A DNA stretch of 64,000 bases from an uncultured Candidatus Saccharibacteria bacterium (GCA_964534365.1 CAZHOI010000002.1:8138-72137); one strand, 5' to 3'. Shown: positions 15,434 to 33,439, numbered from the stretch's first letter. The notes: a model not told the origin generated them from the sequence alone. Made by a program: numbers and translations.

Positions 15434-17779
15434 TTAGAACTCCACTATACCTCCCCCAGCATCATTTAGAATATTGATTGTAACATCTGCGCTGTGTGTA
15501 TTGTTATTATCATCACCGATGGCTGTAAGAATTTTCTTACCACGAGGCATTCTGTTTTGAAGTATGAATTCAACGTTTTGTGCACCACCACAATTGCCGG
15601 CACTACAATTAAATTCTAGATTAGAAGGATTGGTTGTAAAACTGCCAGTACCCAAATCCGAGGAACTAAATGTAACGTCAATTTGTCCGTTGTAACCGGA
15701 TCCTACATCAGGTATGACACGAAATTCTGGTATTGCATCACCGGTTACCCCAGGAACAGTAATTGTTGGTGGGGTTGGGCTAATAATTAATAGTCCATTA
15801 AACCCATCCACTGGGGGGAGGTCTTCGCTACAGTCAATTGCAAAGGTATACGGTTGACCAGATTGAACGTCTTTAAGATTGTCTGGACCAATATTAACAA
15901 CATATCCTGGAACAGGCTCGACAACTAGACGAAACCTTTGTGAATCACCAACTGGAATCGGTTCAGAATGTGAATCAGATTCACCTTGGTCCAGTGATCC
16001 AGTTAAAACAATATTATTACCATTACCCCTGATCAGTTCGAAATCAACCTCTTGACTACAACTGGACTGAACATTTACAGCTGTATTTGGTCCGGCCCCG
16101 GCATTGTAATTACCCTGAACTAATAACTGTCCAGACGCCAGTACTTCCGGAGTGATTAATACGCTAAATATTTTCTGGGTAGTTGTTAATTCATCAACAA
16201 AATCGTCAGGTACTAGCTCATAGGCGATTCTCCCTGGATTTACAGAGTCGCGCCTAGTAGTTTCATTATTTAAATACAGACCCTGATAATCAAGCCCGTC
16301 GGGTACGGCGGTAGGTTCTTCTAGGATAAATTCGATGGTATCTCCAGCTGATACTCCGATTAAAGTGTCAGATACGCCGTTATCGTCATTAAAAGCAACC
16401 TCTTTCTCTTGTGGAACAATTGAAGGAGGCACAGCCCGGAAAGTTTTAGTTTCGGTAGTTAGATCTTCATCAGCTCCAACCGCATTTAATTTATATACCA
16501 CCTCAATATCTCCAGTTATCGGCGTACCCACCCTAGCTGTGGCCGCAAACAGAACATCAATGGCAGACATATGCGATCGGGTTGAAAATCCACTGGTAGG
16601 ATATTCGCAGTCAATTATTAGCCGCTGACTACCTCTTACCAGCACCTTTGTGTCCAAGACAACCTTATTGGCTGCAGAATCATATGTAACATCTGGATCA
16701 GTTATATCAATAGGTCGCATTGCTTTTGGCCAACCGGTATTACATGATTTATAACCTGGGGTTAATTGAACTTGCAAATTAATTTTATCGCCATCTTCTA
16801 GATCAGCGGTACTTACTTGAATTGATGGTATTGCTCCGTCTGATTGATTTGAACTAGTTGACAATGCATTGTTTGTAGTTAATGTAATTACTGGGTTATC
16901 GTTACTATCCGAATACGCAAAGGCCGAGGCGGTACCAGTACCGGCATCATTAGTACACGAAACTTTGTACTCCATCGAGTTTAAAGCGCTGAATTGTCTG
17001 CTACCTGAATTGGCCAGACCAGAGACAGTATTTATAGCGTCAGAATGTCCATAAATATGTTCGGAAATTTGACAAGAATCTGCGTCTTCGCTGGTCCAAG
17101 TAACTTCAATATTGTTAGGAGTTCTGCTTGAAAATAATCCTGATGCTGGTTGGGTTACTTGGGCACTGACAACAGGGACTGATCTTCTAACATCAACAGT
17201 CAATTCATTAACTAAATCCGGAGAACCACTGGACTCTTGCCAGCTGCCGTCATTATCAACCACACATTCCCATTTATACTCTTCACAGAAACCATCGACT
17301 TCGTTTTCACACAGACCCCGGACCTTTTCATAAGGGCGCTCGATTTGTGTTGAAATTAATTCAAAGTCATAACCATCTGATGCTGAAGGGGCTTTTAAAT
17401 TATATGTTCTAGTTGCATTTGACAAGTTGGCTGGCGGACTGTAACCATTAGTTGGAATTGGCCATTCATAACTCATTCTACCCCAGCTACTGTCATGATC
17501 ACCAACACGTTCCAATCTGAATCCCGACGCTACTTCACGACCACATGTTTGCCATTGACTTACCGATCCTTCATTGCCTTCAGTGCGGTAATACCCTTTG
17601 GCAATAACATCAAATGATTGCGTTTTATCAACTGAAATAGACGCTCGTGATCCAACTGAATTTGTATCTATGGTAACGCTAGGAGTTTGAGCATACAAAT
17701 AAGCACTACAACCTAAAATCGCAACTACTGCTAATAGAATTTTGAATACCCTGTTTCGTTTAAAATTTAAGAGTTCCAT
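15434..17779 (-). CDS. Large secreted Ig/beta-sandwich-rich surface protein, possibly pilus-associated adhesin (hypothetical)
   Basis: 781 aa; N-terminal signal peptide; Ser/Thr/Asn-rich; last gene of the pilus operon. Confidence 0.55.
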   Translation of the reverse strand: MELLNFKRNRVFKILLAVVAILGCSAYLYAQTPSVTIDTNSVGSRASISVDKTQSFDVIAKGYYRTEGNEGSVSQWQTCGREVASGFRLERVGDHDSSWGRMSYEWPIPTNGYSPPANLSNATRTYNLKAPSASDGYDFELISTQIERPYEKVRGLCENEVDGFCEEYKWECVVDNDGSWQESSGSPDLVNELTVDVRRSVPVVSAQVTQPASGLFSSRTPNNIEVTWTSEDADSCQISEHIYGHSDAINTVSGLANSGSRQFSALNSMEYKVSCTNDAGTGTASAFAYSDSNDNPVITLTTNNALSTSSNQSDGAIPSIQVSTADLEDGDKINLQVQLTPGYKSCNTGWPKAMRPIDITDPDVTYDSAANKVVLDTKVLVRGSQRLIIDCEYPTSGFSTRSHMSAIDVLFAATARVGTPITGDIEVVYKLNAVGADEDLTTETKTFRAVPPSIVPQEKEVAFNDDNGVSDTLIGVSAGDTIEFILEEPTAVPDGLDYQGLYLNNETTRRDSVNPGRIAYELVPDDFVDELTTTQKIFSVLITPEVLASGQLLVQGNYNAGAGPNTAVNVQSSCSQEVDFELIRGNGNNIVLTGSLDQGESDSHSEPIPVGDSQRFRLVVEPVPGYVVNIGPDNLKDVQSGQPYTFAIDCSEDLPPVDGFNGLLIISPTPPTITVPGVTGDAIPEFRVIPDVGSGYNGQIDVTFSSSDLGTGSFTTNPSNLEFNCSAGNCGGAQNVEFILQNRMPRGKKILTAIGDDNNNTHSADVTINILNDAGGGIVEF

Positions 17780-19800
17780 ATTTCGTTTTGGTTACATTCA
17801 ATTTCAATGACTTTATTATCAGGTACGGTTACTGGTATTGGCTCTGTAGAAGACATAGTGACTAGCCCATCCGTCCAGCTACCACGACACTGATCGGCAT
17901 TAGTAGATGACCATTCTACCCAGATAGTTTCGCCTGGTTGTAATTCAGTATCAGGATCTATTGCTGGACCGCCATTGCTTCGAGAAACGATCAAATCAAC
18001 CTCGGGCAGATCACGCCAGGTATGGATCCTAAAGATCATCTCTTCGATATCACCGTTTGAATTCTTTACCGCCGTTAACTGACTGGCAATAGTGTTAATC
18101 ATACCTTCATTACCGTCGCCTAAATTATCTGAAAAGGCTTGGTATTTATTGGATTCCCTACTACTAGTTATCATCATACCCACTTGTCGTCCGTTTTCAT
18201 AAATAAAGGGGTTTTGTTGAGTTGGAATCAGCCTAAACGGAGATTGACCACAATTTGCCGTTGCATTATCTAAACCATCAACACTAAATACCCTAAATTC
18301 AAGCTCTGGGTCTAGGGCCGAACAATGAACCGTAACGGGAATAGTCTCGCCAGCGGTTGGATCTACTATCAAAGTGACTCGTTCAGTACCAGACCGATTT
18401 CTAAAACTAGGGTTAAATTCTGGATTATTTGTATCTGGCTCCAGGCTTAGCTGTCGAATAATGTTCCTATAACTGTATTCGGATTCAAATCCATAATCAA
18501 CTTCCTTAGAGCTGTGATCGGTTACAAAGTTTTGAGTTTCTACATCTATGAAATAAGTTCCTGCAATAGTAGGTGCGGTGCCTTTGATAACTGCATTTGA
18601 ATGAAAATCTGATTTTGGTAGGCCTGAATAATTATTATAAACATAATTACCAAGTTCTTCGGTGACATAAGGACCACTTTCAGGTAAATTCAATACTTCC
18701 ACACAACCTCCCCCAGAACATCGTTGATGACGACCTTCGGGTAGACCAGCGCCAGGGCGATGCGAAGTTATGTTTGCTCGTTGGCCGTTACTGGCAGTAA
18801 TTGCGCCAGCCGAAAAGGCTTGTCTTTCAAGGACATATTCACTATAGATGCTATTTTCGCCATAAAATGCGGAGTCAGGATTGGCAGTAGCGACATATTC
18901 AAAATTAGCACCAGGGGCCACTGTCAAGGTATCGGGCGCAACATCAAATTCAAATTGTTCTTGTGGTTCGCAAGCATAAGTGGGTATTCTTAAATCAGCA
19001 TATAAAGCTGACATTAATTCCTCAGCCCCATTTGCATTGTCTAATGAAGATTGCTCTGTTAACACACGTGAAACTAGGTTGACTCTGTTACTGTCAATTG
19101 GTATTTCTAAATTAAATTGGGTTTCAAATACAGTGTCATACGGGGCACGACCATCAACTTCGAAATAGACATCATAAAGAGCTTGCGCAAGATCCCACCA
19201 TTCTGGACTCATTTTATTTAGATGTTCAACATCTTCATAGCTGTTACTATTCATGGCCTCAATTGTTCTTGTTATATGCATCCAAAACTCTCTATATTCA
19301 TTATCAACCAAACCATTTATTTCTTCTCCTGGCCAAGTATTACTCAAACTTCTGTCTAAAAAGTAAATTCTACTAGCTCGATTGTATGGAGGTGACGCAT
19401 GATCGCCTTGGTCATGTATATTATAGAGATAGTTCATTACATCACTATCTATACCAGAGATATCAAAATTAACATTCATTGTTGACGCATTGACAGAACA
19501 AGACAATGTTACTTCTGCACCAGAAAAAGTGTTTCCATCAGAAACATCAATGATCCCAAAACTTCTCAATCTATCAACGAGTTGATCATTAAGTTTACAA
19601 GTCAAATTTGAATCAGAACAGTCGTAAGTTTCCGAAAAAGCTTGGGCTTCAACTGGCTGACTTTGCTCAAAGTAAAAAAATCCGACGATCATGGCGGCGA
19701 TTGTAAACACCGATACTGCTGAATGTAATTTATTGTTCGGCTTCATATGGTTTATTCCAGGATACACTAACTTCACTGCCAGTTTCGATCGGAACTGCAA
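17767..19800 (-). CDS. Large secreted/membrane-anchored protein (hypothetical; PilY1-like role is speculative)
   Basis: 677 aa; N-terminal TM after a probable internal start (MKPNNKLHSAVSVFTIAAMIVGFFYF); overlaps the neighbouring genes by a few codons, indicating an operon. Confidence 0.55.
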   Translation of the reverse strand: MQFRSKLAVKLVYPGINHMKPNNKLHSAVSVFTIAAMIVGFFYFEQSQPVEAQAFSETYDCSDSNLTCKLNDQLVDRLRSFGIIDVSDGNTFSGAEVTLSCSVNASTMNVNFDISGIDSDVMNYLYNIHDQGDHASPPYNRASRIYFLDRSLSNTWPGEEINGLVDNEYREFWMHITRTIEAMNSNSYEDVEHLNKMSPEWWDLAQALYDVYFEVDGRAPYDTVFETQFNLEIPIDSNRVNLVSRVLTEQSSLDNANGAEELMSALYADLRIPTYACEPQEQFEFDVAPDTLTVAPGANFEYVATANPDSAFYGENSIYSEYVLERQAFSAGAITASNGQRANITSHRPGAGLPEGRHQRCSGGGCVEVLNLPESGPYVTEELGNYVYNNYSGLPKSDFHSNAVIKGTAPTIAGTYFIDVETQNFVTDHSSKEVDYGFESEYSYRNIIRQLSLEPDTNNPEFNPSFRNRSGTERVTLIVDPTAGETIPVTVHCSALDPELEFRVFSVDGLDNATANCGQSPFRLIPTQQNPFIYENGRQVGMMITSSRESNKYQAFSDNLGDGNEGMINTIASQLTAVKNSNGDIEEMIFRIHTWRDLPEVDLIVSRSNGGPAIDPDTELQPGETIWVEWSSTNADQCRGSWTDGLVTMSSTEPIPVTVPDNKVIEIECNQNEIWNS

Positions 19801-20272
19801 TTACACTAACTGATTGATTGCCATTCTGCGCGCTGTAATAATAGGTTTGCCCATCATCTGGGGTAGTGTAATCGGTATCAGTCACAGCTAACAAATCCTC
19901 GGTTTTTGAAACTAGCTGATCCAGGGCCTGTTCTGGCGTCAGGGTGCTGCGATAATTTATACTAGTGGTAGTGGTTTGACTGCCAAAATCAGAACGGTTA
20001 ACACCAATTACTTCGGCATTATTTGGGACTAAATCTGAGATACCGAAACTGTCCAGATCATCAGAAGTTACTTGCCCAGGATCGCTAAACCGCAGGTTTT
20101 GATTGGTGCGTTCGCCATAGGTTGAAGTCTCGATCGTGGCTGGTTCCAAGTCTGCATTTTCCCCACCGCGCAACACTAACCACAATATCAAACCTACAAT
20201 TAACAACACGACCAATGCCAAAACCGCAAAACTGTATTTGGTTAACTTTCGGGATAACACCATTTGGTTCAT
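19730..20272 (-). CDS. Single-pass membrane protein (hypothetical, pilus-operon member)
   Basis: 180 aa; N-terminal TM FAVLALVVLLIVGLILWLVL. Confidence 0.45.
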   Translation of the reverse strand: MNQMVLSRKLTKYSFAVLALVVLLIVGLILWLVLRGGENADLEPATIETSTYGERTNQNLRFSDPGQVTSDDLDSFGISDLVPNNAEVIGVNRSDFGSQTTTTSINYRSTLTPEQALDQLVSKTEDLLAVTDTDYTTPDDGQTYYYSAQNGNQSVSVIAVPIETGSEVSVSWNKPYEAEQ

Positions 20273-20338
20273 AGTATAGCGATAATGTTAGTAAATGCTG
20301 TTTGGAGTGTTGATAACTAGGAATCTATGGGTTACTGA

Positions 20339-20962
20339 CTATGTAGTAGAGCTGAAATCAGGCAATGGATACAACACCTCTTGCAATACCACCTGACCAT
20401 TTTGGCCGCTTTGTAATTTAAATTGAACAGTAGAGGTGATTTCGTAAATTGTAGTTTCAACAAGGTCTGTGCTTCCATCAGAATCATGATCAAAATCAAT
20501 TTCTACTTTATTAAATTCGATTAAACGCGAGTATAGCGTTATATTTCCGTCATTGATTGTATAATTTCCCCCGGATTGCAAAGTTAATTTAGCATCATCA
20601 TCATCAATGTCATTAACTGAAACGAATGCAGCGCCGCCTGGAATATCGCCGGTAGCATCCACATTACATTTATTAGTTGATTTACAATTATCAGGAAATA
20701 AATTGTCGGAATTAGCAATATTACTTCCCAATAATTCTAGTCGGGCTGAATCACGGTATGCCCTTATTGCCTCGATACCCTCGACCGCTAGATACGAAGC
20801 GGTTGTTTGTTCGGCAGCATAGCGTTGCGCCCGCATCGAATCAAACATAACCGACGTAGCAGCAACAGACACAGTCAAAAATACCGCTATGGCCACTAGG
20901 GTTTCGACCAAGGTAATACCTGAATCAAGGCCTGTTCTACGGTTGTATTGACGGTATTTCAT
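20339..20962 (-). CDS. Type IV pilin-like protein (minor pilin/pseudopilin) with prepilin cleavage motif
   Basis: ...DSG|ITLVETLVAIAVFLTV (G-x-T-L-x-E motif). Confidence 0.75.
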   Translation of the reverse strand: MKYRQYNRRTGLDSGITLVETLVAIAVFLTVSVAATSVMFDSMRAQRYAAEQTTASYLAVEGIEAIRAYRDSARLELLGSNIANSDNLFPDNCKSTNKCNVDATGDIPGGAAFVSVNDIDDDDAKLTLQSGGNYTINDGNITLYSRLIEFNKVEIDFDHDSDGSTDLVETTIYEITSTVQFKLQSGQNGQVVLQEVLYPLPDFSSTT

Positions 20963-20974: not shown

Positions 20975-21535
20975 TTAGTAGTTATCATACCGTCTTTGGG
21001 TTACTAGGGTTTGATAGGTTACCTCGCGAGCGTCAGGAAAATCACCTTTGGCCGTAATAGATATTAAGGCATGAGGCTGTTCAATGTCAGAACCCGAGTC
21101 ATAACGATCATCCCCCGATACTGCTACATCAAAATTGGTAATAATAATGTTTGATGGAGACAGCGGAATTTCTGGACTGCTACCCCCTAAGTCTCTGGTT
21201 AGTTTAAGTTGGTTGTTGTCTGCTCTTAAACTATATGCTTCGCCTGGGGTAATTATGTCAGTTTTGAAACTAAATGCTCCAGAATTCCAATTATAGTCGT
21301 ATCCAACCCGTGCGTTTCGGGCAACATCCTCTAATACTAAATCCATAGCTTGTGACACTTGCTGTTGTTGACGAATTTCACGATTTGACCGCAAAACCGA
21401 CACGGTCGCTGATGACGAGACCATAACCACAATTAAAAATAATGCCATAGAGACAATCAATTCCACTAAAGAATAGCCATCATTGATATTTTTGCCTTGC
21501 AAACGATTAATTGTGTTTTGAAGCTTTAGGATCAT
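20975..21535 (-). CDS. Type IV pilin-like protein (minor pilin/pseudopilin)
   Basis: ...NDG|YSLVELIVSMALFLIVV. Confidence 0.75.
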   Translation of the reverse strand: MILKLQNTINRLQGKNINDGYSLVELIVSMALFLIVVMVSSSATVSVLRSNREIRQQQQVSQAMDLVLEDVARNARVGYDYNWNSGAFSFKTDIITPGEAYSLRADNNQLKLTRDLGGSSPEIPLSPSNIIITNFDVAVSGDDRYDSGSDIEQPHALISITAKGDFPDAREVTYQTLVTQRRYDNY

Positions 21536-21538: not shown

Positions 21539-22390
21539 TTATTTAACGTAAATTCCCCCACTGGCGTCAATTACTACAAACTGATGATTGCCACTGGGAC
21601 GATCGGCGGTGTCAATTATGATCTCTACCCTTTCAACCTCGAAAATGTCTTCTCGATTGTTTATTAGGATCAAATCATCAGTACTTGAATTAAAATTATT
21701 GATATACTCTGGATCATTACTATAACCGCAGTTTTTAGCAGCAGATATTCTAGGCTGTAATAAAGGTCTAGAGTAAATTATAGACGGATTAAAGCTCGGT
21801 GTATCAGGCTCGATACAAAAGTCGGAATCCCCAATGTAGATTGGCGGCGTTGCACCGTGATAATCGTCTGAACAAAAGGTTGGATTAGATCCTTCACCAA
21901 AAAAACATACTTGCTTAACGACAAGAGGGCTATTCAATTTAATTGGGAAGATTCCATCTTGTTCGGACGAATCCGTATAATAACCATCTTCAATACTGTC
22001 GACAAATTGCACAAATTTAGCGTCGTGTTTGTTGGTTAAATCTAAGTATATACCACGATCATAATCACTATCTGCAGTTGTGACTAGCACATCAGTAGCT
22101 TGTGATTGCTGTTCGCGGAATAAAATAGCCAGTTCATGCGCGGCATTTTTCAGCCTGACACTCTTGTTGAAATCCTGCTGTGACACCACAATCACCCCGC
22201 CCAGCATGGCCATAATTGCGATTGACACCATTAACTCAACTACTGTGAATCCAGCCGATTCCGATTGGATATTTATCTCATTAGTTGAATGAAGGTATTT
22301 GGCTAGCCATTTAATCATATTATTTAATTTATTCATTGAACGCGGCGACACCAAGTTTATTAATCTCTTCGAATGGGACCCGGTATTCAA
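21539..22390 (-). CDS. Type IV pilin-like protein (minor pilin); true start probably an internal Met
   Basis: ...SAG|FTVVELMVSIAIMAMLGG; the ORF's 5' end overlaps the pilB 3' end. Confidence 0.7.
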   Translation of the reverse strand: MNTGSHSKRLINLVSPRSMNKLNNMIKWLAKYLHSTNEINIQSESAGFTVVELMVSIAIMAMLGGVIVVSQQDFNKSVRLKNAAHELAILFREQQSQATDVLVTTADSDYDRGIYLDLTNKHDAKFVQFVDSIEDGYYTDSSEQDGIFPIKLNSPLVVKQVCFFGEGSNPTFCSDDYHGATPPIYIGDSDFCIEPDTPSFNPSIIYSRPLLQPRISAAKNCGYSNDPEYINNFNSSTDDLILINNREDIFEVERVEIIIDTADRPSGNHQFVVIDASGGIYVK

Positions 22391-24068
22391 ACGCTTTTAA
22401 AATAGCGTCTTCGCGCATGGTTAACATCCCGTCGCGTCGGGCCGCATCATAGATCTCGCCCTCGTTCGGGTCTTTTAATAAGATCTCATCAATTTCGCGC
22501 GTCATACGCATTACTTCAAATACCGCTTGACGACCAGATGTGCCTTTGGGACAACGGGCGGTTGGTTCTATCCCAAGCACAAATTCAGGGTAGGTAATAT
22601 GACTACGATATTCTGGCGCCAGATCTTCGAATTCGCTATCAATAATTTTTTTGACTGATCCCTCAATCGGAATTTTACGCCCGGTACCTTTACAAATTTT
22701 TTGAATCAACCGCTGACCGATTGCCAATTTCAAAGTTGGTGCGATTAAATATGGGTCGACCCCCATGTCTACCAGTCGAGGGATTACGCCGGTTGCGGAA
22801 TTGGTGTGAATAGTAGACAGCACTAGGTGGCCAGTTAGAGCCGCCTGGACCGCTAGTTGCGCAGTTTCCTTGTCGCGAATCTCACCCACCATAATAATGT
22901 CGGGGTCTTGACGTAAAACGGTACGTAATCCCGAGGCAAAGGTATAGCCAATATCGCCATTAACGGCTGACTGCGAAACGCCAGGAATTTGATATTCGAC
23001 TGGGTCTTCTAGCGACAGGACGTTCTTGGTCTTGCGATCAACTTGTTCCAGCATGGTGTATAACGTAGTTGATTTACCTGATCCAGTCGGTCCCGAAATC
23101 AGAATTAATCCATAAGGTTCATCAATTGCATTTTTAATCAACTCCAGATTGCGCTGTGACAATCCCAGAGAAGTTAAATCGCTGACATTACGACTAGATT
23201 CTAATAATCGCATTACAATTTTTTCACCAAATGATGTGGGGAATGTCGAGACCCGAAAATCAATTTTATGACCATCAATATGGGCACTGAAACGACCATC
23301 TTGTGGTTTACGTTTTTCGTCAATTCGCAGATTTGCCAGAATCTTTACCCGGGCAACAACAGCGGCATGAGTAGCTGCCGGCAGAGCCAAACTTTGTTTA
23401 AGAGCACCATCAACTCGAAAACGAACCTTGGTTTCGGTTTCGTAGGGCTCGATATGAATATCAGAAGCATGATCTTCTTTGGCATGACGAATAATGGTAG
23501 CTACAATTTTAGTAACGGGGGCAGCATTAGCATCCGGTTCACTGTCAACTGCATTTTCAACTGGTTTATCAGGTTCAAGGATTAACTCGCCCTCTAATTC
23601 AGACAAGGCTGATCCAACTTCGTTAATTAATTGATCAACTGATCCGGTTGCCTGATCAAAATCCAATTTGGTAACTACTAGTATTTTGAACGATAGCCCT
23701 AGGGACGAGGTGATAAAGTCCATGACCTCGCGAGCCCCTTCGCTATGAGGATTAACAAATCCAACTACTAGTTCATGATCTTTTTTATCCAGGGGAATAA
23801 TGCTGTACAGTTCAACTGTTTTGGCTGGAACCATCTTCAAGACTTCTTCTGAGATACTGTTGCCTGTAATCCGCTTACCAGGGAAATTATAGAATTGAGA
23901 TTTTATTTCCAAAACTTGATCCTGGGTAATATTAATTTCATCAAAGGCAATCTCGTAGTAATCGCCCTTTTCTACTTCCGAGCGAACTGTACGGTATTGC
24001 TCGGGGGTCAAAAAACCTTTTTCATTGGCAAAATCTAGGATTGATAGTTGTGTTTCCAGTTCTACCAT
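22329..24068 (-). CDS. pilB: Type IV pilus assembly ATPase PilB (GspE family)
   Basis: N-terminal GSPII_E_N-like domain; Walker A GPTGSGKSTT; Asp/His boxes; C-terminal tetracysteine-like CxxC. Confidence 0.9.
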   Translation of the reverse strand: MVELETQLSILDFANEKGFLTPEQYRTVRSEVEKGDYYEIAFDEINITQDQVLEIKSQFYNFPGKRITGNSISEEVLKMVPAKTVELYSIIPLDKKDHELVVGFVNPHSEGAREVMDFITSSLGLSFKILVVTKLDFDQATGSVDQLINEVGSALSELEGELILEPDKPVENAVDSEPDANAAPVTKIVATIIRHAKEDHASDIHIEPYETETKVRFRVDGALKQSLALPAATHAAVVARVKILANLRIDEKRKPQDGRFSAHIDGHKIDFRVSTFPTSFGEKIVMRLLESSRNVSDLTSLGLSQRNLELIKNAIDEPYGLILISGPTGSGKSTTLYTMLEQVDRKTKNVLSLEDPVEYQIPGVSQSAVNGDIGYTFASGLRTVLRQDPDIIMVGEIRDKETAQLAVQAALTGHLVLSTIHTNSATGVIPRLVDMGVDPYLIAPTLKLAIGQRLIQKICKGTGRKIPIEGSVKKIIDSEFEDLAPEYRSHITYPEFVLGIEPTARCPKGTSGRQAVFEVMRMTREIDEILLKDPNEGEIYDAARRDGMLTMREDAILKAFEYRVPFEEINKLGVAAFNE

Positions 24069-25241: not shown

Positions 25242-25851
25242 CCGATTCGGGATTGTCCAATTGATTTTCTGATTGATCTAATAGGGCTAAATCAATTAGA
25301 AATGAATACTCAAAAGATATAAAATCTTCTTCGTTTCGATTAAATTCAGTAAAAATTGGATTGGAAATAAATGAGCTTTTAGTAAATTCGTCTGATTGCA
25401 AAGCTAAAGCCTCAAAATTATACGCTTCACCCTCGCCTGACACTTTAATAGTATTATTGTTGTCGTATCCTACCTGGGCGGTTTTTAACTGTACCGTAGT
25501 TAGAACATATGATTCGATTTCTTCAAATACCGGACTTATTTCCTGGTGTTGATTTAATAGCTGATTCACCGCCGCCAACCTTTTATCAAATCGATTTAGT
25601 TCAGCAATTTCTTCAGGAGCGTAAGTTTGTTTAGCATCACTTAACCTCGCTTGACGTTCGGCCAATTCGTCGGTGGCCAGATTTTTAAACAGAAATGAAA
25701 ACAAGGCTCCAGCAACCGCTAGTACAAAGATTACTGATGCAACAAATAAAGCGGCATTCAAATAAGCGCGAATTCGGTCAATATTACGCCGAGCGCTTTT
25801 TTTCTCATCTTGCTTTGGGATAAAGCTAGGAGTTTTTGGTTCAGAGCTCAT
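25210..25851 (-). CDS. pilN: PilN-like pilus assembly protein
   Basis: Short cytoplasmic N-terminus, single TM, periplasmic coiled coil; synteny. Confidence 0.55.
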   Translation of the reverse strand: MSSEPKTPSFIPKQDEKKSARRNIDRIRAYLNAALFVASVIFVLAVAGALFSFLFKNLATDELAERQARLSDAKQTYAPEEIAELNRFDKRLAAVNQLLNQHQEISPVFEEIESYVLTTVQLKTAQVGYDNNNTIKVSGEGEAYNFEALALQSDEFTKSSFISNPIFTEFNRNEEDFISFEYSFLIDLALLDQSENQLDNPESVAAVNINIYE

Positions 25852-25926: not shown

Positions 25927-26727
25927 CTATAGCAAGAAAAGGTTAAAATTATCCAACAAATCTAGTTTGGGAATACTGACAATTATATACCCGGTAATTA
26001 AGTATGGCCCAAATGGCACCGCTGACTTCATTCCCAACTGTTTGCCAGAAGACTGATTCGGCATAAGTTTCTGCCCCGCTAGAATAATTAGCGACACTGC
26101 AGCCCCAATCCAAAAAGCTAGTAATACCGCCGTCGCACCAGCCGATAGACCCAATAACCAGCCGATTGATAGTGATAGTGTCCCATCAGCAAATCCCATT
26201 CCTCGACCTTTGGTAATTGCCCATAATAACCAGAAAAATCCGGCTAAAATTGGTCCGGCTAGTAATTCCAAAACGGTTGGATAGGTTGGCAATAAATGGA
26301 TAGGATCAAAAAACAATAATAGAAAAGAAATAAGGATTAAAGGAAGAGATAGTTCGTGCGGAATAATAAATTGATCCAAATCAATTAATGCAATCATGAT
26401 CATTATCAACGCTATTATTGAACTTACGACAAATCCAGACCAGCTGGCAGCACTTAGCCAGATAGCAACTAATATTGCCGCTGTAGCGACCTCAACCAAG
26501 GGATAACGCGGTGATAATCGACTGTGACACGCCGAACATTTCCCCTGCTGCCATAACCACGACAATACAGGGATTAAATTTTTTGCCCGCAGGGTTTGTC
26601 CGCAGGTAAAACATTTAGATCGTCTGGCATTCTGCCGACTAGTCCCCCACCGCCCTGCGGTAGCATTTAAATACGACCCTACGATTAATCCAAATATTCC
26701 TATAAAAATAATTACCAGTAAGTCCAT
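25927..26727 (-). CDS. pilD: Prepilin peptidase/N-methyltransferase (A24 family)
   Basis: N-terminal TM; Zn-binding CFTCGQ...CSACHS motif; polytopic C-terminal domain. Confidence 0.85.
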   Translation of the reverse strand: MDLLVIIFIGIFGLIVGSYLNATAGRWGTSRQNARRSKCFTCGQTLRAKNLIPVLSWLWQQGKCSACHSRLSPRYPLVEVATAAILVAIWLSAASWSGFVVSSIIALIMIMIALIDLDQFIIPHELSLPLILISFLLLFFDPIHLLPTYPTVLELLAGPILAGFFWLLWAITKGRGMGFADGTLSLSIGWLLGLSAGATAVLLAFWIGAAVSLIILAGQKLMPNQSSGKQLGMKSAVPFGPYLITGYIIVSIPKLDLLDNFNLFLL

Positions 26728-26756: not shown

Positions 26757-26780
26757 CTAGGGGTGACAGTCACCCAGCGA
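26757..26780. repeat. REP-like palindrome GGGTGACAGTCACCC flanking the 3' end of the RAYT gene
   Basis: Perfect inverted repeat seen in the sequence. Confidence 0.7.
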
Positions 26781-26782
26781 GT

Positions 26783-27358
26783 TTATTTTTTTGAGGTATA
26801 ATTTTTTATATTTTCCTTCTCTGTTGTAGTCAGATTTCTGTTCAAATCTTCCAAATATGTAGTCGGTAGATCAATCGGTAAGTCATTGTCAACAATTTTG
26901 TATCTGGCAAATCTGCGATTATGCGCACTCCCCCATTTCCAATCTTCTGCCTTATCTACTAAATTTGCCCTTTTTGCATTTCGTTCAATATAGCGAAGTA
27001 GATTGTAAAAATACTTATCGTCTCTAATATGAAAAGATTTATAACGACCTTGGTATAAATGACCAAATCCCACTTGACTATACTTAGATTTAAACCTTTT
27101 AACGTGAGTATTGGTTAGTCGGCGCATAAAATTACCTAATTCACCATTAATTTGTGGTGACACTAAAAGGTGCCAATGATTAGGCATTACGCAAAAACCC
27201 AAGACTTTGACATTGAACAAATCTTTGGTTTCATCAATTAATAATAGAAATTCTTGATAATCATTATTATCTTTAAAAATTTTAATCTTGTTATTTGATC
27301 GATTTAATACATGATAATACTCGCCTGCAATATCTGTTCTAGGTAAGCGGCCCATCAA
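26783..27358 (-). mobile_element. IS200/IS605-type HUH Y1 transposase, REP-associated tyrosine transposase (RAYT)-like
   Basis: HUH motif VMPNHWHLLV; conserved N-terminal YHVLNRSNN; C-terminal catalytic Tyr region; flanked on both sides by REP palindromes. Confidence 0.8.
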
Positions 27359-27380
27359 TCTAATTATACAACATATTTTT

Positions 27381-27426
27381 AATACTGCTGGGTGACTACT
27401 GGGTGACTGTCACCCAGCAGTATTAG
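27381..27426. repeat. Compound REP: AATACTGCTGGGTGAC-TACTGGGTGACT-GTCACCCAGCAGTATT (16-bp perfect arms) at the 5' flank of the RAYT
   Basis: Seen in the sequence. Confidence 0.75.
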
Positions 27427-27779
27427 CAAGTTTCAAAGGTTGAGTTGGGATTGGTGCTAGTGACGCAAATTTGTTGATTACCTGATAACTGGGCGCTTAC
27501 CTGATAATGTTGGTTGGTGCTAGAGCAACTATAGTAATCAAAATTAATCGAAGACACGTAAGCCTCTTGAGCAATTTTTTCACAGACTCGATCATAATTG
27601 CCATTATTAACCTGATGTAACATAGCAATGGCTGGCACAGAGGATATAAAACTAATTAGGCGACTGTCTTCAGCATCCGCAATTGTTTGGACTGAGAAGA
27701 TGCTAAAAATAGCGACTATGCCCAGAATAAACAGCAGGGTCAGTAATTGCAGACTGGAACGAACGCTTTTACGAGTCAT
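27423..27779 (-). CDS. Small secreted Cys-containing protein (possibly a degenerate pilin-like protein)
   Basis: 118 aa; N-terminal hydrophobic helix LQLLTLLFILGIVAIFSIF; four Cys in the C-terminal half. Confidence 0.4.
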   Translation of the reverse strand: MTRKSVRSSLQLLTLLFILGIVAIFSIFSVQTIADAEDSRLISFISSVPAIAMLHQVNNGNYDRVCEKIAQEAYVSSINFDYYSCSSTNQHYQVSAQLSGNQQICVTSTNPNSTFETC

Positions 27780-27886
27780 TTATAGCCAAGTATAACCGAA
27801 GACTTTGACCATCCTTTAACCAGCCGTGGATAAAGTTGTGTGTTCGAAAATTATTATACAATGAACTTAGCAATCCGCTGGGTGAC

Positions 27887-27960
27887 AGTCAATTATTGTG
27901 TCACTTATTGCACTATCACCTATTGCAAAATTGTGGGTGGCTGTCACCCATTGCACCTTT
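27887..27960. repeat. Two degenerate REP copies (GCTGGGTGACAGTC at 27887-27900; GTGGGTGGCTGTCACCCA at 27943-27960) just downstream of pilin gene 2
   Basis: Seen in the sequence. Confidence 0.5.
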
Positions 27961-27964: not shown

Positions 27965-28459
27965 CTACAAACATTCTGCGACGACCCCAGTACCACCACC
28001 AGTCGCCTCGCCGGTTCCCCGATACCCTGATGAATCCGCACACCAATTTTGAGATATCCCATTTTCATCTAAATATTCTACAGATACTGCATACGAGCCT
28101 CCGTCCTCCCCTACTGCACATGTGGCCTCAATCCCTTCTGATTCTGCACCTAAAACAATTTCAGATACATTATATTCATTAGCTGTATCTGAGTTGAAGA
28201 TACTTATAGTATCACCAGTAGAATGGTCGCAAACCAATGGATCAGCAGCAACAGCTGTTCCAAACCCGCTGTTTTGACCGCGGTAAAATTCACTCTGACC
28301 AGTTAAGTTAGCTAATGATGCCTTAACTGCGGCTTCTGAACCACTACTCCTGGCATCGCCGAGTGACCCCAATACAATGCTACCAATAATTCCGATGATG
28401 GCAATTACTACCAATAATTCTAGCAAAGTAAACCCTTTTTTGTATATATCAACCTTCAT
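27965..28459 (-). CDS. pilA: Type IV major pilin (PilA-like), second tandem copy
   Basis: MKVDIYKKG|FTLLELLVVIAIIGIIGSIV: canonical prepilin leader, Glu5 and hydrophobic helix. Confidence 0.85.
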   Translation of the reverse strand: MKVDIYKKGFTLLELLVVIAIIGIIGSIVLGSLGDARSSGSEAAVKASLANLTGQSEFYRGQNSGFGTAVAADPLVCDHSTGDTISIFNSDTANEYNVSEIVLGAESEGIEATCAVGEDGGSYAVSVEYLDENGISQNWCADSSGYRGTGEATGGGTGVVAECL

Positions 28460-28477: not shown

Positions 28478-28501
28478 CAAAAAAACCACTGAAAGTGGTT
28501 T
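28478..28501 (-). terminator. Intrinsic terminator between the two tandem pilin genes (AACCACTTTCAGTGGTT plus U-run on the minus strand)
   Basis: 7-bp stem with T-run immediately after the first pilin stop. Confidence 0.6.
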
Positions 28502-28519: not shown

Positions 28520-28972
28520 TTAGATTGTACAGTCTGCGTCACCAGATCCAATTCCAACAGCAGCTTGTTCGCCTCCGTAACCTGATGAGTCAATACAGTA
28601 GAAATCACCGCCCAATAATGGAGAAGATATGGCATACCCAGTACCTGTTGAAACACATGTAGCGGTTCCACCACCGTTTTGTGAATTAACTTGAGTTATC
28701 GCATTATTAAAAGCGTCAGTAGCAAACATGTCGGTATTACAACCAACACCCGCAGCTCCGTAAGTATTATCACCCACACCACTATAGTATAGCTCTGCCT
28801 GAGCTCGCATGTTGTTTAGAGATGATTGAACAGATGCATCTGAACCAGAGGTTCGAGCTGAGTTCAATGAAGCCAGAACAACAGAGGCCAAGATTCCGAT
28901 GATGGCAATTACTACCAACAGCTCGATCAAGGTGAATCCCTTGTCCTTAGCTTTAAAGTTAAGAGTTTTCAT
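28520..28972 (-). CDS. pilA: Type IV major pilin (PilA-like), first and promoter-proximal copy, with C-terminal disulfide loop
   Basis: MKTLNFKAKDKG|FTLIELLVVIAIIGILASVV; C-terminal Cys pairs. Confidence 0.88.
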   Translation of the reverse strand: MKTLNFKAKDKGFTLIELLVVIAIIGILASVVLASLNSARTSGSDASVQSSLNNMRAQAELYYSGVGDNTYGAAGVGCNTDMFATDAFNNAITQVNSQNGGGTATCVSTGTGYAISSPLLGGDFYCIDSSGYGGEQAAVGIGSGDADCTI

Positions 28973-28994
28973 TTAATTAATTAATTATATTTTT

Positions 28995-29035: not shown

Positions 29036-29106
29036 TGTTTAATGATCTGATATTAAGTATACGGGGTTTATAAACATGTCCAGAACTCGACTGTGTATAA
29101 CATTGC

Positions 29107-29148
29107 GTAGCACGTAGCACGTAGCACGTAGCACGTAGCACGTAGCAC
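29107..29148. repeat. Heptanucleotide tandem repeat (GTAGCAC)x6, about 135-175 bp upstream of the major pilin start
   Basis: Six perfect copies seen in the sequence. Confidence 0.9.
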
Positions 29149-29479: not shown

Positions 29480-30682
29480 TTAAATGCCGGTGGAGATGTT
29501 GTAAATTGGGAACAATACCGCCGCCAACAACGTCCCTACCCCGATTCCTAAAAATACTATCATCGCTGGTTCGATCAAATCAACCAACGAATCCACCGCC
29601 CGGGTTACCTCGTCTTTGTAGTATTTCGACAAAGTACCCAGAATAGTGCCGATTTTACCACTTTCTTCGCCAACACGGATCATTTGAACCAATACCCCTG
29701 GGATATAATCCGGGTAATTTGACAATGCATCTGAGAGCGACTTCCCAGACCTGACTTCTTCGATTGAATCAGAAATTATACCAGCATAAACTTTATTGCC
29801 GATGACTTCTCGGGAAGTTTCCAAGGCATGAAGCATCGAGATACCAGATGAGAGCATGGTATGCATATTATCAGCAAACCGCGCCAGATAAATTTTACGA
29901 TATAGATTGCCGACAAAAGGAGTATGTAGGGCAAATACCGTTAGACGCTCGCGGTTAGTCGGTTGACGCAAAAAGTAAATTAATCCAGCGACAGCAAGTA
30001 TTAGCAGCGTCAGCAGAATAAAACCATAATTGACTAGAAAGGCACTGGTTCCTAATACAATTTTAGTATAAACCGGCAAATCCTGACCTGATTCAGTCAA
30101 AATTACCCCAATTTTAGGAATAATGTAGGTCAGCATCAAAATCATTACGATAAAGAAGGTAAAGACCACAAATACCGGGTAAGTTAAAGCGCTTCGAGCC
30201 TTGCTGGCCAGTTCATAATTGCGCTCGAGGTATTCGGCCAGGTATTGAAAGGTTTGTGGCAGACGACCAGTCTCTTCGCCCGAGGCGATCATATTGACAT
30301 AAAATTTGGAAAATACTTTAGGGTGTTTAGCCAGACTGACCGAGAGTTGCTGGCCGGCTTCCAGATCAGCGACAATTTCTTCAAGGATTTCTTTGAGGCG
30401 AGGATTGTCAACTTCTTCGGACAATAACGAGAAAATTCGCAGGGTTGAAATATTGGCGTTAAACAGTGTGGCCAGCTGTCGCGATAATAGTACGACGTCT
30501 TTGGTTTGAACGCGGTTTATTATATTAAATTCCAGCTCGCCCAGGGATTTTTTTTCTGTGATTTTAGAGACTACTAAACCAGATCCACGCAGAGCACGCA
30601 ATGCTGCCTCGCGGTCATCAGCTTCGTAGACCCCTTTTGTAGGAGCGCCGTCAGCAGTAGTAGCAATGTATTCAAATTTCAT
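29480..30682 (-). CDS. pilC: Type IV pilus assembly platform protein PilC (GspF family)
   Basis: Two GspF repeats, three TM segments; typical length and synteny. Confidence 0.9.
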   Translation of the reverse strand: MKFEYIATTADGAPTKGVYEADDREAALRALRGSGLVVSKITEKKSLGELEFNIINRVQTKDVVLLSRQLATLFNANISTLRIFSLLSEEVDNPRLKEILEEIVADLEAGQQLSVSLAKHPKVFSKFYVNMIASGEETGRLPQTFQYLAEYLERNYELASKARSALTYPVFVVFTFFIVMILMLTYIIPKIGVILTESGQDLPVYTKIVLGTSAFLVNYGFILLTLLILAVAGLIYFLRQPTNRERLTVFALHTPFVGNLYRKIYLARFADNMHTMLSSGISMLHALETSREVIGNKVYAGIISDSIEEVRSGKSLSDALSNYPDYIPGVLVQMIRVGEESGKIGTILGTLSKYYKDEVTRAVDSLVDLIEPAMIVFLGIGVGTLLAAVLFPIYNISTGI

Positions 30683-30685
30683 AAA

Positions 30686-31750
30686 TTATTTTAGGTAGCG
30701 CTGAAAAATAGCGGGATTATGGGCATAACGCATGGCAGCGGATTCTTCGACCTGGTTATTTTTTACCAGCTGGGCCAAGGATCGATCCATGTCAATCATA
30801 CCCTGATCCATGCCAGTTTCGATTACCGACCGCAATTCATGGGTGCGTTCATCACGAATCAAGTTGGCTACGGCAGCATTGTTAATTAGCAACTCATAGG
30901 CTGGCACTACACCTGATTCGTTGCTGGGGATTAACCGTTGGGACAAGATACCCGACAGCGCGGCTGACAACTGTGATCGAATTTGGCGTTGTTGACCGGT
31001 CGGAAATACGTCAATAATTCGATCAATAGTTTGCGGGGCGTCGTTTGTATGCAAGGTCGCAAATACCAAGTGACCAGTTTCGGCTGCAGTAATGGCCGAT
31101 GAAATCGTATCCAGATTACGCAGCTCACCCAACATGATTACGTTGGCATCCTGTCGGAATGCCGAATGCAGCGCCTGGTCAAAACCATCAGTATCAAGAC
31201 CAACTTCACGCTGATCAATAATTGATTCTTTTTGCACGTGAATATATTCGATTGGGTCCTCGATAGTCAGAATGTGTTCTTGTCTGGTGGTATTGATTAG
31301 ATCAATCATCGCCGCCAAGGTAGTTGTTTTACCCTGACCGACTGGTCCTACTACTAGAAAGAATCCTTGTTTTTGAAGGGCAAAATCTTTAAGGATCTCG
31401 GGCAAGCCAAGTTCTGATAAAGAAGGAATTTTGCGTGGGATATAGCGCAAAGCGATGCCTACCCCACCACGTTGAATAAAGGCATTACCCCGAAATCTGG
31501 TAATATCATCGGCTGAATACGAATAATCAAGCTCTTTATCTTCTAGGAAGCGGTCTTTTTGTTCTTTGGATAGCATTAGGGTTAAAAACTCCAAAGTATC
31601 ACTGCCGCTAAGCACCGGAAGATTTTGTAATGGGATCAGGGTTCCGGCGACTCGAATAGTAGGATGTCTGCCGATCGAAAAATGAACGTCAGAAGCCGCT
31701 TGCGAACGGACAATCTCGATTATTTGATCTAGTGTCTGTTTGTAGTTCAT
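30686..31750 (-). CDS. pilT: Twitching-motility retraction ATPase PilT
   Basis: Walker A GPVGQGKTTT; PilT-specific GMIDMDRSLAQL region; about 350 aa. Confidence 0.9.
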   Translation of the reverse strand: MNYKQTLDQIIEIVRSQAASDVHFSIGRHPTIRVAGTLIPLQNLPVLSGSDTLEFLTLMLSKEQKDRFLEDKELDYSYSADDITRFRGNAFIQRGGVGIALRYIPRKIPSLSELGLPEILKDFALQKQGFFLVVGPVGQGKTTTLAAMIDLINTTRQEHILTIEDPIEYIHVQKESIIDQREVGLDTDGFDQALHSAFRQDANVIMLGELRNLDTISSAITAAETGHLVFATLHTNDAPQTIDRIIDVFPTGQQRQIRSQLSAALSGILSQRLIPSNESGVVPAYELLINNAAVANLIRDERTHELRSVIETGMDQGMIDMDRSLAQLVKNNQVEESAAMRYAHNPAIFQRYLK

Positions 31751-32863
31751 TTAAATGTTGTGAATGTATTTAAGTGCGAGTCCCGCTGCAACGGCATATT
31801 CAGGACCAGTCTCTACCAGTAGTTTATCAAGAAATTCCGGCGCTTCGGCATTTATGAATGGTTGACAAATAGTTATTTTGGAATCCAATGTTTTTGCAAC
31901 ATATTCTGGCAACCCATATAACAGTGAACCACCCCCGCATAAATAAATAGGCAGTGATTTTTCATCACTAAATTCAGCCCGAACCCGACGAATGTCAGCT
32001 ACAATTTTATCAATTTGTGCTTTTAAAGCATCGCCCACTGGCAATCCATCTAGATCAGCTAATTTTAAATTTCGTTTAAGTTTCTCGGCCTTGGCAAAAT
32101 CAATGCCCAGACTAGTCTGTAACACTTTGCTAAATTCAACCCCACCATTGAGTTTTTTATGAGCCGAAATGATTTTATCACCCTCAATGGCATAAATTTT
32201 AGTATAGCGGGCGCCAATATCAACAATTATAGCCTGATCGACATTGTGACCAATCGCGGAACGCATCACGGAATAGGCTTCCAGTTCGAAATAAGTAACT
32301 GGTAATTCTAGATTATTAAGCACTGTTTTATACGTATCAATTATTTCTTTATTTATCACAAAGGCCAACACATTCCGAGTGACATTGTTTTGAGAAATCG
32401 GTTTAGCATCAGGTTTTTGATCTTGCGGTTTATCAATTACTTGCCAATCAATATAAACCTGTGAAATCGGAACAGGAATTTCGGATTTAAGCCTGGCATG
32501 AACTAGTCTATCGAGCTCGGCATCATTATTGCCAGCTTTTATCTGCAGGGGTACTACCAAAGTGGCAGACAGCGGTATTGCCACCGCGACCGCCTCGGGA
32601 TTATTAATCGGCGTATTGGCTAGCAAAGCGGTTAGAGCCTGTTGTAGTTTGGGGGCATCAAGGTTGGCCACAAATCCAGCGGGTTTTTCAACAAGGGGTC
32701 CCAAGTCTAATTCCCCATAATTACCTAGCTGCACTTTGCCTTTGTCTTCGATGAATTGAACTAGCTTGATCGATGATGACCCTAGTTCGATACCAACCGA
32801 AGTAATCCGATGACCTTGACTGGCTTGTTTAATTGCCTTGAAAAATGATTGCAATTTGGGCAT
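31751..32863 (-). CDS. pilM: Type IV pilus assembly protein PilM (actin-like ATPase fold)
   Basis: N-terminal VGIELGSSSIKLV; ...DIGARYTKIYA...; C-terminal GGGS; head of the pil operon. Confidence 0.85.
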   Translation of the reverse strand: MPKLQSFFKAIKQASQGHRITSVGIELGSSSIKLVQFIEDKGKVQLGNYGELDLGPLVEKPAGFVANLDAPKLQQALTALLANTPINNPEAVAVAIPLSATLVVPLQIKAGNNDAELDRLVHARLKSEIPVPISQVYIDWQVIDKPQDQKPDAKPISQNNVTRNVLAFVINKEIIDTYKTVLNNLELPVTYFELEAYSVMRSAIGHNVDQAIIVDIGARYTKIYAIEGDKIISAHKKLNGGVEFSKVLQTSLGIDFAKAEKLKRNLKLADLDGLPVGDALKAQIDKIVADIRRVRAEFSDEKSLPIYLCGGGSLLYGLPEYVAKTLDSKITICQPFINAEAPEFLDKLLVETGPEYAVAAGLALKYIHNI

Positions 32864-33439
32864 ATGAAAGTGCTAGAATTAATAATAATGATACCACGGA
32901 CTTGGCAAGAGGTGTCGGGTAGTTTGTGTACAAGCCTGGTTCGACCAAATCATTTCTACCTAGTTGATTATCAATACCACCAGAAACTGGTAATTAAAAC
33001 TAAATATAGTTTGAATTTAACTGCGGTAAATCAAATCACCAACCTAATTGCTGACGACCTTAATGTTCAGATTCAGGAACTATATCCGCTGGAGCAAAAT
33101 TGGACGATTACGCCAGTGCCACTATATTGGTTATCACGTTTAAAACGACAATTTTGTTTAAATTCAATTATTTGCAAAAAAGTAGCTCATAGATGTGGTC
33201 TAAATTTTGCCAAACTACTGAGCAATACCTCGCCACAAACCCAAGGTCAGTGCCGTGATCGCGCCTCGCGGATTAAAAACGCCCAGCATAAATTCAAGCT
33301 ACGTCGTCAGATTAAGGTACCACGAAATATTATTATATTTGATGATGTCGTTGCCACTGGATCGACCATGAAGACTTGCGAGAAATTGCTGAGGCAAAAA
33401 GGTGCGAAAAATATTATTTGGTTATCGCTGGCCCATTAG
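32849..33439 (+). CDS. comFC: ComF-family phosphoribosyltransferase-domain protein (ComFC-like competence protein); start likely at an internal Met
   Basis: C-terminal PRTase motif IIIFDDVVATGSTMKTC; divergent from pilM. Confidence 0.65.
   Translation: MQFGHMKVLELIIMIPRTWQEVSGSLCTSLVRPNHFYLVDYQYHQKLVIKTKYSLNLTAVNQITNLIADDLNVQIQELYPLEQNWTITPVPLYWLSRLKRQFCLNSIICKKVAHRCGLNFAKLLSNTSPQTQGQCRDRASRIKNAQHKFKLRRQIKVPRNIIIFDDVVATGSTMKTCEKLLRQKGAKNIIWLSLAH

Follow-up and report, generated by a model that had tools for sequence, protein, structure and literature searches.

A 64,000-nucleotide stretch of DNA (GCA_964534365.1 CAZHOI010000002.1:8138-72137; the window, in whose positions all coordinates are given) contains what is, judged by family matches and gene order, a complete locus for competence and a type IVa pilus of the monoderm type, from a Paceibacteria-like Patescibacterium. 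Its minor-pilin genes are interrupted by a cassette of three genes that encode a 180-aa protein with a membrane anchor (tm180) and two large exported proteins of 659 and 781 aa. We tentatively read the products of this cassette as putative accessory adhesins of the pilus, acting perhaps at its tip, a reading to which we give a probability of about 40%. A complete type IV pilus (T4P) locus in a Candidate Phyla Radiation (CPR) genome is in itself expected and already well known. T4P are the best-supported organelles of host attachment and DNA uptake in CPR bacteria (Patescibacteria).

The pilus and competence locus

The pilus genes lie on the minus strand unless stated otherwise (Table 1). The sequence-only reading had described a series of pilM, pilT, pilC, two pilA genes, a small Cys protein, a REP-associated tyrosine transposase (RAYT; REP, repetitive extragenic palindrome), pilD, pilN, pilO, a PilP-like gene, pilB and pseudopilins, with comF divergent at its head, and had assigned it to a CPR bacterium. 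Matches to Pfam and NCBIfam models confirmed that the core T4P genes are co-directional and stand in this order, and that comF lies at the head on the plus strand. The divergent arrangement of comF and pilM was found in 20 of the 25 related loci that have comF. With the listed start of comF (TTG), the two genes share 15 nt at their starts, therefore the true start of comF is probably further in. At its other end pilM is abutted, at its stop, by the start of pilT.

The locus contains the set of components by which a type IVa pilus is recognized: two ATPases of the T2SSE family, PilB for extension and PilT for retraction; PilC with two T2SSF repeats, together with PilM, PilN and PilO (PilN by synteny-supported homology only); and a prepilin peptidase with class III leaders that have Gly-1 and Glu5. 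Such leaders, of the form G/[FYI][TS][LV][IVL]E (the slash marks the cleavage site), are present in five proteins, the two PilA and three minor pilins. No secretin gene was found in the locus. The pilN call held in part: relatives have homologues of the gene (E down to 1e-21), placed between pilM and pilO, but it matched no family model in the Pfam and other family scans. The 168-aa protein encoded between pilO and pilB, which had been called PilP-like, matched no family; it is not demonstrably PilP, and what it shares with PilP is its position alone. Based on the family matches, PilM, the PilN-position protein, PilO and PilC form the membrane platform, PilB and PilT drive extension and retraction, and PilD processes the two PilA pilins and four minor pilins. 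The two PilA proteins are paralogous (E 4e-20), and pilA1 is followed by a terminator-like hairpin with a T-run (28501..28483). The small Cys protein downstream of them (cys118) gave a weak phmmer match to a pilin of a related locus (L043, E 1e-7) and is possibly a degenerate pilin.

Three pseudopilins had been counted in the sequence-only reading, and the large genes that follow them had been taken to be terminal. Both points need correction. A fourth, PilX-like minor pilin (p200) is encoded 7.4 kb downstream of minor pilin 3 (pp207), beyond the region first described, so that the fourth pilin gene is not consecutive with the others in the window, and the minor-pilin block therefore encloses the large genes, which are not terminal. 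PilX_N matched 5 of 10 members of the p200 family, with a best E of 3.5e-4, which is under the Pfam cut-off, and the family profile gave no GspK or PilX match when compared to the PDB.

To which organism does the locus belong? The best matches of PilB in one-genome-per-species and metagenome collections are metagenome-assembled genomes of Patescibacteria (Taylorbacteria, Kaiserbacteria and Paceibacterota), with only ∼50% identity, and scans of genomes and metagenomes for closer relatives with PilB as the query gave nothing above ∼52–56% identity. The CPR assignment is right, but the lineage is poorly sampled. Contigs of six other samples (JGI and SRA assemblies) represent the same clone and are 100% identical to the window except for one SNP; because the identical sequence recurs in several JGI and SRA assemblies, a one-off chimeric assembly is ruled out. 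Apparent heterogeneity at the junction of the 781-aa gene and the following 687-aa gene (contig ends at 15343 and 15370) was dismissed, as the breaks are scattered over 12351–15370 and come from low-coverage assemblies. Similarly, the split pilD in the JGI calls reflects only a difference in gene calling; the DNA is identical.

We then compared the gene order to that of relatives, using 160 fetched loci (L0xx and L1xx) in which ORFs were called and matched to the window proteins with phmmer. In relatives, a divergent comF is followed by pilM, pilN, pilO, a gene for a small transmembrane (TM) protein, pilB, a receiver-domain gene, pilT, pilC, pilA, pilD, minor pilins 1, 2 and 3, a PilX-like pilin, ligA, gatC and gatA. 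This Paceibacteria-type block was seen in L005–L017, L043, L091 and L103. In the window, pilT-pilC-pilA-pilA-cys118-RAYT-pilD is placed between pilM and pilN, a rearrangement that splits pilB and pilT apart, and no counterpart of the receiver-domain (response-regulator-like) gene that relatives have between pilB and pilT was found anywhere in the 64 kb. At least 15 related loci have the segment pilD-pp283-pp186-pp207-p200-ligA unbroken, and in none of them does any gene separate minor pilin 3 from the PilX-like pilin. In the window this gap holds four genes, those for tm180, the 659-aa, the 781-aa and the 687-aa proteins.

Thus, the locus resembles other CPR T4P loci (e.g. T4P-1 and T4P-2 of Nanosynbacter lyticus TM7x, PMC11623550, and the Paceibacteria-type loci) in having PilM, N, O, B, T, C and D, a major pilin and four minor pilins, in its lack of a secretin, in the divergent comF and the downstream ligA, and in a last minor pilin that is PilX-like and has no Glu5. 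Unlike them, it has a rearranged order, no receiver-domain gene, an internal RAYT with REP-like palindromes and four extra genes between minor pilins 3 and 4, and its PilB is only ∼50% identical to the nearest sampled relative. By these features of its sequence, the locus is a variant of the CPR T4P with respect to gene order, REP/RAYT content, absence of the receiver gene and interruption of the minor-pilin block.

The cassette between minor pilins 3 and 4

The gene for tm180 begins 66 nt past pp207. Its stop overlaps the start of the 659-aa gene by 17 nt, and the stop of the 659-aa gene overlaps the start of the 781-aa gene by 13 nt, in line with the overlapping stops and starts noticed earlier. 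The length of 677 aa given before for the first large protein corresponds to an upstream TTG; the ATG at 19746, which is also the start in the JGI gene call, gives 659 aa. No convincing terminator was found from pp207 to the end of the 781-aa gene, and neither large protein showed homology to an enzyme; either an operon boundary between them and the pilus genes or a clear enzyme relationship would have spoken against their connection with the pilus. The cassette genes have a GC content of 0.40–0.44 and a GC content at third codon positions (GC3) of 0.28–0.41 (0.29 for the 659-aa and 0.28 for the 781-aa gene), which is host-like (the GC content of the genome is 41%). This host-like composition, together with the intact overlapping ORFs, suggests that the cassette is old and has been maintained, i.e. 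that it has resided in the genome for long and under selection.

The statement that the large proteins have no recognizable family was borne out by every search. A word-seeded search of 5.8e9 clusters gave no match beyond the query itself for either the 659-aa or the 781-aa protein, and when the 781-aa protein was compared exhaustively with 1.84e9 representatives by HMMER, it again matched nothing but itself. Neither matched a sequence in Pfam, NCBIfam, PHROGs, PADLOC or the PDB, even at a permissive E (up to 10 for Pfam, NCBIfam and the PDB). Likewise, tm180 forms a singleton cluster and matched no family in Pfam, NCBIfam, PHROGs or PADLOC, and no paralogues of the family-less proteins were found within the window.

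What kind of proteins are they? Both large proteins are low in Lys and rich in Ser, Thr, Asn, Gly and Asp. In the 659-aa protein the N-terminal third is predicted to be helical and the remainder beta-rich, and the 781-aa protein possibly has a lipobox (ILGC). Single-sequence AlphaFold2 models contained strands nearly throughout and one beta-sandwich-like module in each protein, at a predicted local distance difference test (pLDDT) score of 60–68. A Foldseek search with the model of the 781-aa protein gave 0 matches at E ≤ 1e-3; the sub-threshold ones were all of the fn3, Ig, CARDB or PKD type. Based on these predictions, the 659-aa and 781-aa proteins are extracellular or envelope proteins, probably multi-domain and beta-rich.

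Two further ideas about the large proteins were rejected. We asked whether they share a domain, and found only a 14-residue motif (I.V.W.S..AD.C) with a Smith–Waterman z of ∼3, for which 7 of 500 shuffles were as good; jackhmmer found no other instance of this region in the fetched loci. They are also not pilin-like: hhalign against the p200 family gave a probability of ≤0.12%, and their hydrophobic regions are short and Sec-type, with no G/FTLxE.

Function of the cassette

Why should such a cassette be connected with the pilus? In well-studied systems, PilY1, PilC and MshQ are large Sec-exported non-pilin proteins of the pilus tip, whose genes are syntenic with those of the core minor pilins, and in PilY1 and MshQ an extreme C-terminal beta-strand complements a PilK/PilX-like minor pilin (PMC12918778). 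Other pili carry the additional mass within a pilin: Thermus ComZ is a GspK-like pilin into which a beta-solenoid is inserted (PMC6561018), and Saccharibacteria have two large candidates for tip adhesins, PilX1 and PilX2, the second of which is required to bind the host efficiently (PMC11623550). Among our relatives, the minor pilin 3 homologue of L087 has 761 aa with two fn3 domains and a ConA-like Laminin_G_3, the PilX-like pilin of L007 has 431 aa with Laminin_G_3, and L063 and L130 encode homologues of the flanking pilins with CarboxypepD_reg/PEGA modules. In other Patescibacteria the cluster ends in PilX-like proteins of 470–608 aa. In the window, both flanking pilins are small (pp207 has 207 aa and p200 has 200 aa).

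A role in the pilus is favored because the cassette is set into the junction of minor pilins 3 and 4, where no relative examined has an interruption, and because relatives sometimes enlarge precisely the two flanking pilins with modules of the adhesin type. It is further favored by the gene overlaps, the 66-nt gap, the lack of a convincing terminator, the native composition, the export signals and the many Cys residues, as well as by the predicted structure, which is mostly beta, with the moderately confident parts resembling beta-sandwiches. The cassette would then be expressed with, or directly after, the minor pilins, and its products would work extracellularly as an adhesive accessory of the pilus, taking over in trans the task for which relatives fuse lectin, fn3 or Ig-like modules to minor pilin 3 or 4. 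Such products would be functionally analogous to PilY1, PilC and MshQ and not members of that family.

The likeness to known systems goes only so far. As in PilY1, PilC and MshQ (PMC7541494; PMC12918778), large non-pilin proteins with Sec signals are encoded among minor pilins, next to a PilK/PilX-like gene. In contrast to them, the cassette proteins show no sequence similarity and no C-terminal beta-propeller by sequence (the AlphaFold2 models being too poor to judge the fold), the cassette encodes not one large protein but two, besides one with a membrane anchor, the host is monoderm-like, and the PilX-like partner keeps its C-terminal segment. With the modular minor pilins (ComZ, PilX1/PilX2 and the homologues in L087 and L007), the cassette shares the proposed placement of an adhesive or ligand-binding module at the operon position of the last minor pilins. 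It differs from ComZ, PilX1/PilX2 and the PilB/PilC pilins of S. sanguinis in that the extra mass lies in separate genes with Sec-type signals whose products contain no pilin domain.

Several observations weigh against the adhesin reading. Neither large protein matched a vWA, beta-propeller, PilY1, PilC, pilin or adhesin family by sequence, so the suggestion that a vWA domain or a PilY1 propeller might be recognized in them found no support, and at a pLDDT of 36 for both proteins the AlphaFold2 models were unusable for deciding it by fold. The block is also interrupted elsewhere: at pilA/pilD (cys118 and RAYT), around p200 (the 687-aa gene, a lipoprotein gene and GC-rich non-coding DNA) and at ligA/gatC, where the insertion (1552–9023) comprises p593 (a 593-aa signal-bearing orphan), an ABC transporter, a photolyase and a 139-aa ORF, although in relatives ligA directly precedes gatC-gatA. 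As unrelated or foreign inserts are thus present at three other junctions of the block, the position of the cassette alone is weak evidence. Genes are closely packed throughout this genome (e.g. 30 nt from ligA to p593), and in the window large ORFs without a family are frequent. The ATG of tm180 is directly preceded by a TATACT hexamer, and therefore the cassette may have its own promoter. Finally, p200 retains a C-terminal 'R.VERaL' segment that a full-length alignment shows to be conserved in relatives without a large partner. As p200 keeps this conserved segment of its own, a donated strand in the style of PilY1 is not obviously needed.

The cassette could instead be unrelated cargo at a permissive junction, encoding fast-evolving envelope or secreted proteins (e.g. 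cell-surface, S-layer-associated or host-interaction proteins) that act apart from the pilus and share its strand and perhaps its transcript. We regard this as almost as probable as the adhesin reading. Besides the inserts at the three other junctions, the compact co-directional packing everywhere and the further large family-less ORFs, including p593 right after ligA, it is favored by the adjoining 687-aa gene, which is clearly foreign in composition (GC3 0.63) and bracketed by inverted repeats, by the REP-like palindromes and RAYT in the locus, and by the cassette proteins having no detectable pilus-related domain while the C-terminus of p200 looks self-sufficient. However, the native composition and intact overlapping ORFs of the cassette speak for old, maintained genes, and the cassette lies inside the minor-pilin sub-operon and not at its edge. 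Moreover, relatives have adhesive modules at exactly the same operon position, and large non-pilin genes in minor-pilin operons encode tip proteins in well-studied systems (PMC12918778).

Two other explanations fit less well. The large proteins might be Sec-exported substrates that a short pseudopilus, resembling that of a type II secretion system (T2SS), pushes through the cell wall or S-layer. The minor pilins do have N-termini like those of T2SS pseudopilins (GspH/I/J/K matches), both large proteins have Sec-type signals, and substrate genes sometimes adjoin T2SS genes; a similar case is the pullulanase gene, located beside the T2SS genes of the pul system. We nevertheless consider this improbable, since Patescibacteria are not known to have an outer membrane and no secretin is encoded in the locus, hence there is no barrier that would need a T2SS, and since neither large protein has an enzyme domain. 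In addition, PilT scores above the PilT/PilU cut-off, indicating a retractile pilus, and real extended pili have been shown experimentally in Saccharibacteria (PMC11623550). Even less probable, in our view, is that the cassette is decaying or without function, left over for instance from a formerly modular minor pilin or an old mobile element. The absence of relatives anywhere, the RAYT, REP-like palindromes and rearrangement in the locus, and the resemblance of cys118 to a degenerate pilin would fit such an origin, but uninterrupted ORFs of 180, 659 and 781 codons cannot persist by chance at 41% GC, the start/stop overlaps are precise, the export signals are intact, the codon composition is host-like, and there are no matches to phage or defence families.

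If the cassette is associated with the pilus, CPR tip adhesins could be supplied either as fused modules or as separate genes, and the cassette would be a candidate for host recognition. A more elaborate version, which we consider doubtful, would make tm180 and the 659-aa and 781-aa proteins a non-pilin accessory complex of a CPR T4P, of a kind not seen before, that sets the choice of host; the locus would perhaps be a REP/RAYT-marked site that captures foreign genes for surface proteins, with the 687-aa gene perhaps derived from a host of the Fibrobacteres–Chlorobi–Bacteroidetes (FCB) group. If the cassette is not associated with the pilus, the locus is still a case of a deeply conserved pilus–ligA block remodelled by rearrangement, REP/RAYT elements and capture of a compositionally foreign gene. 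The locus also illustrates the limits of guilt by association in compact genomes.

Repeats, foreign-looking DNA and other features of the window

Table 1. Features of the pilus locus and its surroundings in the 64-kb window (a slash marks the cleavage site)
Feature	Position	Strand	Description and evidence
comF	32849-33439	+	ComFC-type phosphoribosyltransferase-like competence protein; TIGR00201 E 1.1e-20, below curated cut-off
pilM	31751-32863	-	Actin-like cytoplasmic platform protein; PilM_2 PF11104 E 2e-29; TIGR01175 E 3e-33
pilT	30686-31750	-	Retraction ATPase; T2SSE PF00437 E 4e-41; TIGR01420 (PilT/PilU) 427 bits, cut-off 319
pilC	29480-30682	-	Inner-membrane platform protein; T2SSF PF00482 E 1e-63, two repeats; GspF/PilC NCBIfam models
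(CGTAGCA) x 6.1	29106-29148		Perfect heptanucleotide repeat; TRF score 86, 100% matches
pilA1	28520-28972	-	Major-pilin candidate; N_methyl E 3e-10; leader ...KDKG/FTLIELLVV
pilA2	27965-28459	-	Second pilin paralogue; N_methyl E 3e-8; leader ...YKKG/FTLLELLVV
cys118	27423-27779	-	118 aa, 4 Cys, N-terminal hydrophobic/TM segment; no family match
RAYT	26783-27358 (with palindromes 26761-27415)	-	RAYT-like Y1 transposase; PF01797 E 2e-17, above its cut-off; NF047646 66 bits, cut-off 80
pilD	25927-26727	-	Prepilin peptidase; A24_N_bact PF06750 E 4e-24; Peptidase_A24 PF01478 E 3e-9
pilN-position gene	25210-25851	-	Bitopic protein, N-terminal 'SFIPK' peptide conserved in relatives; homology to syntenic genes
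pilO	24615-25241	-	PF04350 E 2e-8
168-aa protein	24095-24601	-	Small TM-anchored protein; no family; phmmer E 1e-7 to 1e-4 to syntenic pilO-pilB ORFs of relatives
pilB	22329-24068	-	Extension ATPase; T2SSE PF00437 E 2e-118 and MshEN; TIGR02538 E 6e-144
Minor pilin 1 (pp283)	21539-22336	-	GspH/FimU-like N-terminus, ...SAG/FTVVELMV; N_methyl; TIGR01708 E 8e-7; syntenic homologues
Minor pilin 2 (pp186)	20975-21535	-	...NDG/YSLVELIV; N_methyl; ComGE-like N-terminus E 7e-7; syntenic homologues
Minor pilin 3 (pp207)	20339-20962	-	PilV/GspI-like N-terminus, ...DSG/ITLVETLV; N_methyl E 0.002; TIGR02523 E 8e-6; syntenic homologues
tm180	19730-20272	-	180 aa, N-terminal TM anchor (residues 8-40), acidic S/T-rich ectodomain, no Cys; no relatives found
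659-aa gene	17767-19746	-	Exported orphan, signal-peptide-like N-terminus ending VEAQA/F, 10 Cys; ATG 19746
781-aa gene	15434-17779	-	Exported orphan, signal peptide, 13 Cys, predicted almost all beta
687-aa gene	13160-15223	-	Signal peptide and C-terminal match to a T9SS-type sorting domain; GC 0.58, GC3 0.63
Minor pilin 4 (p200)	12303-12905	-	PilX/GspK-like, ...SQRG/VTLLIAVIL, no Glu5; phmmer E 2e-11 to syntenic genes; full-length alignment
69-aa ORF	11966-12175		No family match; inserted, with the 145-aa ORF, between p200 and ligA
Lipoprotein-like ORF	11527-11964		145 aa (MKTIICLTTLLLCGC...); GC 0.52, GC3 0.55, compositionally foreign; no family match
Non-coding stretch	11083-11440	-	GC-rich (0.48-0.50), ∼350 nt, between lipoprotein gene and ligA; relatives have a short spacer only
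GGGTGAC[AT]GTCACCC	12262-12276 (degenerate), 12982-12996, 26761-26775, 27401-27415, 27880-27894, 27935-27949		Palindrome copies

The RAYT call of the sequence-only reading is supported by a match to NF047646, which at 66 bits stays under the cut-off, and by the palindrome GGGTGAC[AT]GTCACCC, which flanks the gene on both sides (Table 1). The palindrome occurs in six copies in the window, compared to 0.9 expected, and 0 of 100 shuffles reached six; all copies are within the pilus locus. Two of them (12982-12996 and 12262-12276) flank p200 and two (27880-27894 and 27935-27949) lie between pilA2 and cys118; the palindromes mark several junctions at which the locus holds extra DNA compared to relatives. 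Homologues of the Y1 transposase are found beside pilus genes in L010, at the same pilA-pilD junction, and in L027 and L104. As in REP/RAYT systems (NF047646), a gene resembling a Y1 (HUH) transposase is flanked by one short palindrome with more copies nearby; unlike in those systems, the score is 66 bits against an equivalog cut-off of 80, and the six copies in 64 kb are all in the pilus locus and not dispersed.

The 687-aa gene that follows the cassette looks like a recent foreign acquisition, judged by its composition and surroundings. An imperfect inverted repeat of 25 nt (15265-15289 and 13070-13094, 21 of 25 positions matching) encloses it, and a perfect 16-bp hairpin (13100-13136) follows. 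Residues 610–676 of its product match a sorting domain of the type IX secretion system (T9SS) type, with 25.9 bits for TIGR04183 (cut-off 23) and 23 bits for PF18962 (cut-off 27). No genes of the T9SS machinery were found in the window, and CPR bacteria are not known to have an outer membrane or a T9SS. The gene possibly comes from a donor of the FCB group. A homologue search with the 687-aa protein was empty and missed even its own existing cluster, so that this negative is unreliable and orphan status is not established; tblastn found no counterpart among plasmids.

Upstream of ligA, the GC-rich non-coding stretch folds significantly better than shuffled sequences (z = −3.7, with 0 of 100 as good) and ends in a strong hairpin with a T8 terminator (11112..11083). 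It had no match in Rfam and may be a structured RNA of a new type or a remnant of foreign DNA.

No Shine–Dalgarno sequence was found at the 24 gene starts examined (11000–33000). Since no gene of the locus has one, the Shine–Dalgarno sequence is uninformative as a test of translation here. Hexamers resembling TATACT or TATAAT are present 0–15 nt upstream of the ATGs of pilA2, cys118, RAYT, tm180 and ligA. The hexamers and the lack of Shine–Dalgarno sequences suggest leaderless mRNAs, or mRNAs with very short leaders, and internal promoters. In addition, the heptanucleotide repeat (CGTAGCA) lies in the AT-rich 507-nt spacer between pilC and pilA1, ∼135–175 nt upstream of the pilA1 ATG, and could be a slipped-strand phase-variation element for expression of the major pilin.

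Outside the locus, a series of large minus-strand ORFs extends over 54358–62797; it includes a 959-aa protein with weak matches to ATPases of the TrwB/HerA type and ORFs of 944, 469 and 324 aa without a family, and may be a cluster related to secretion or DNA transfer. At 33580–33752, two neighbouring tRNA-Ser(GCT) calls overlap at their ends by 5 nt and share a 57-nt segment that is 82% identical. Only one of the two reaches the Rfam tRNA threshold, and the second may be a degenerate duplicate.

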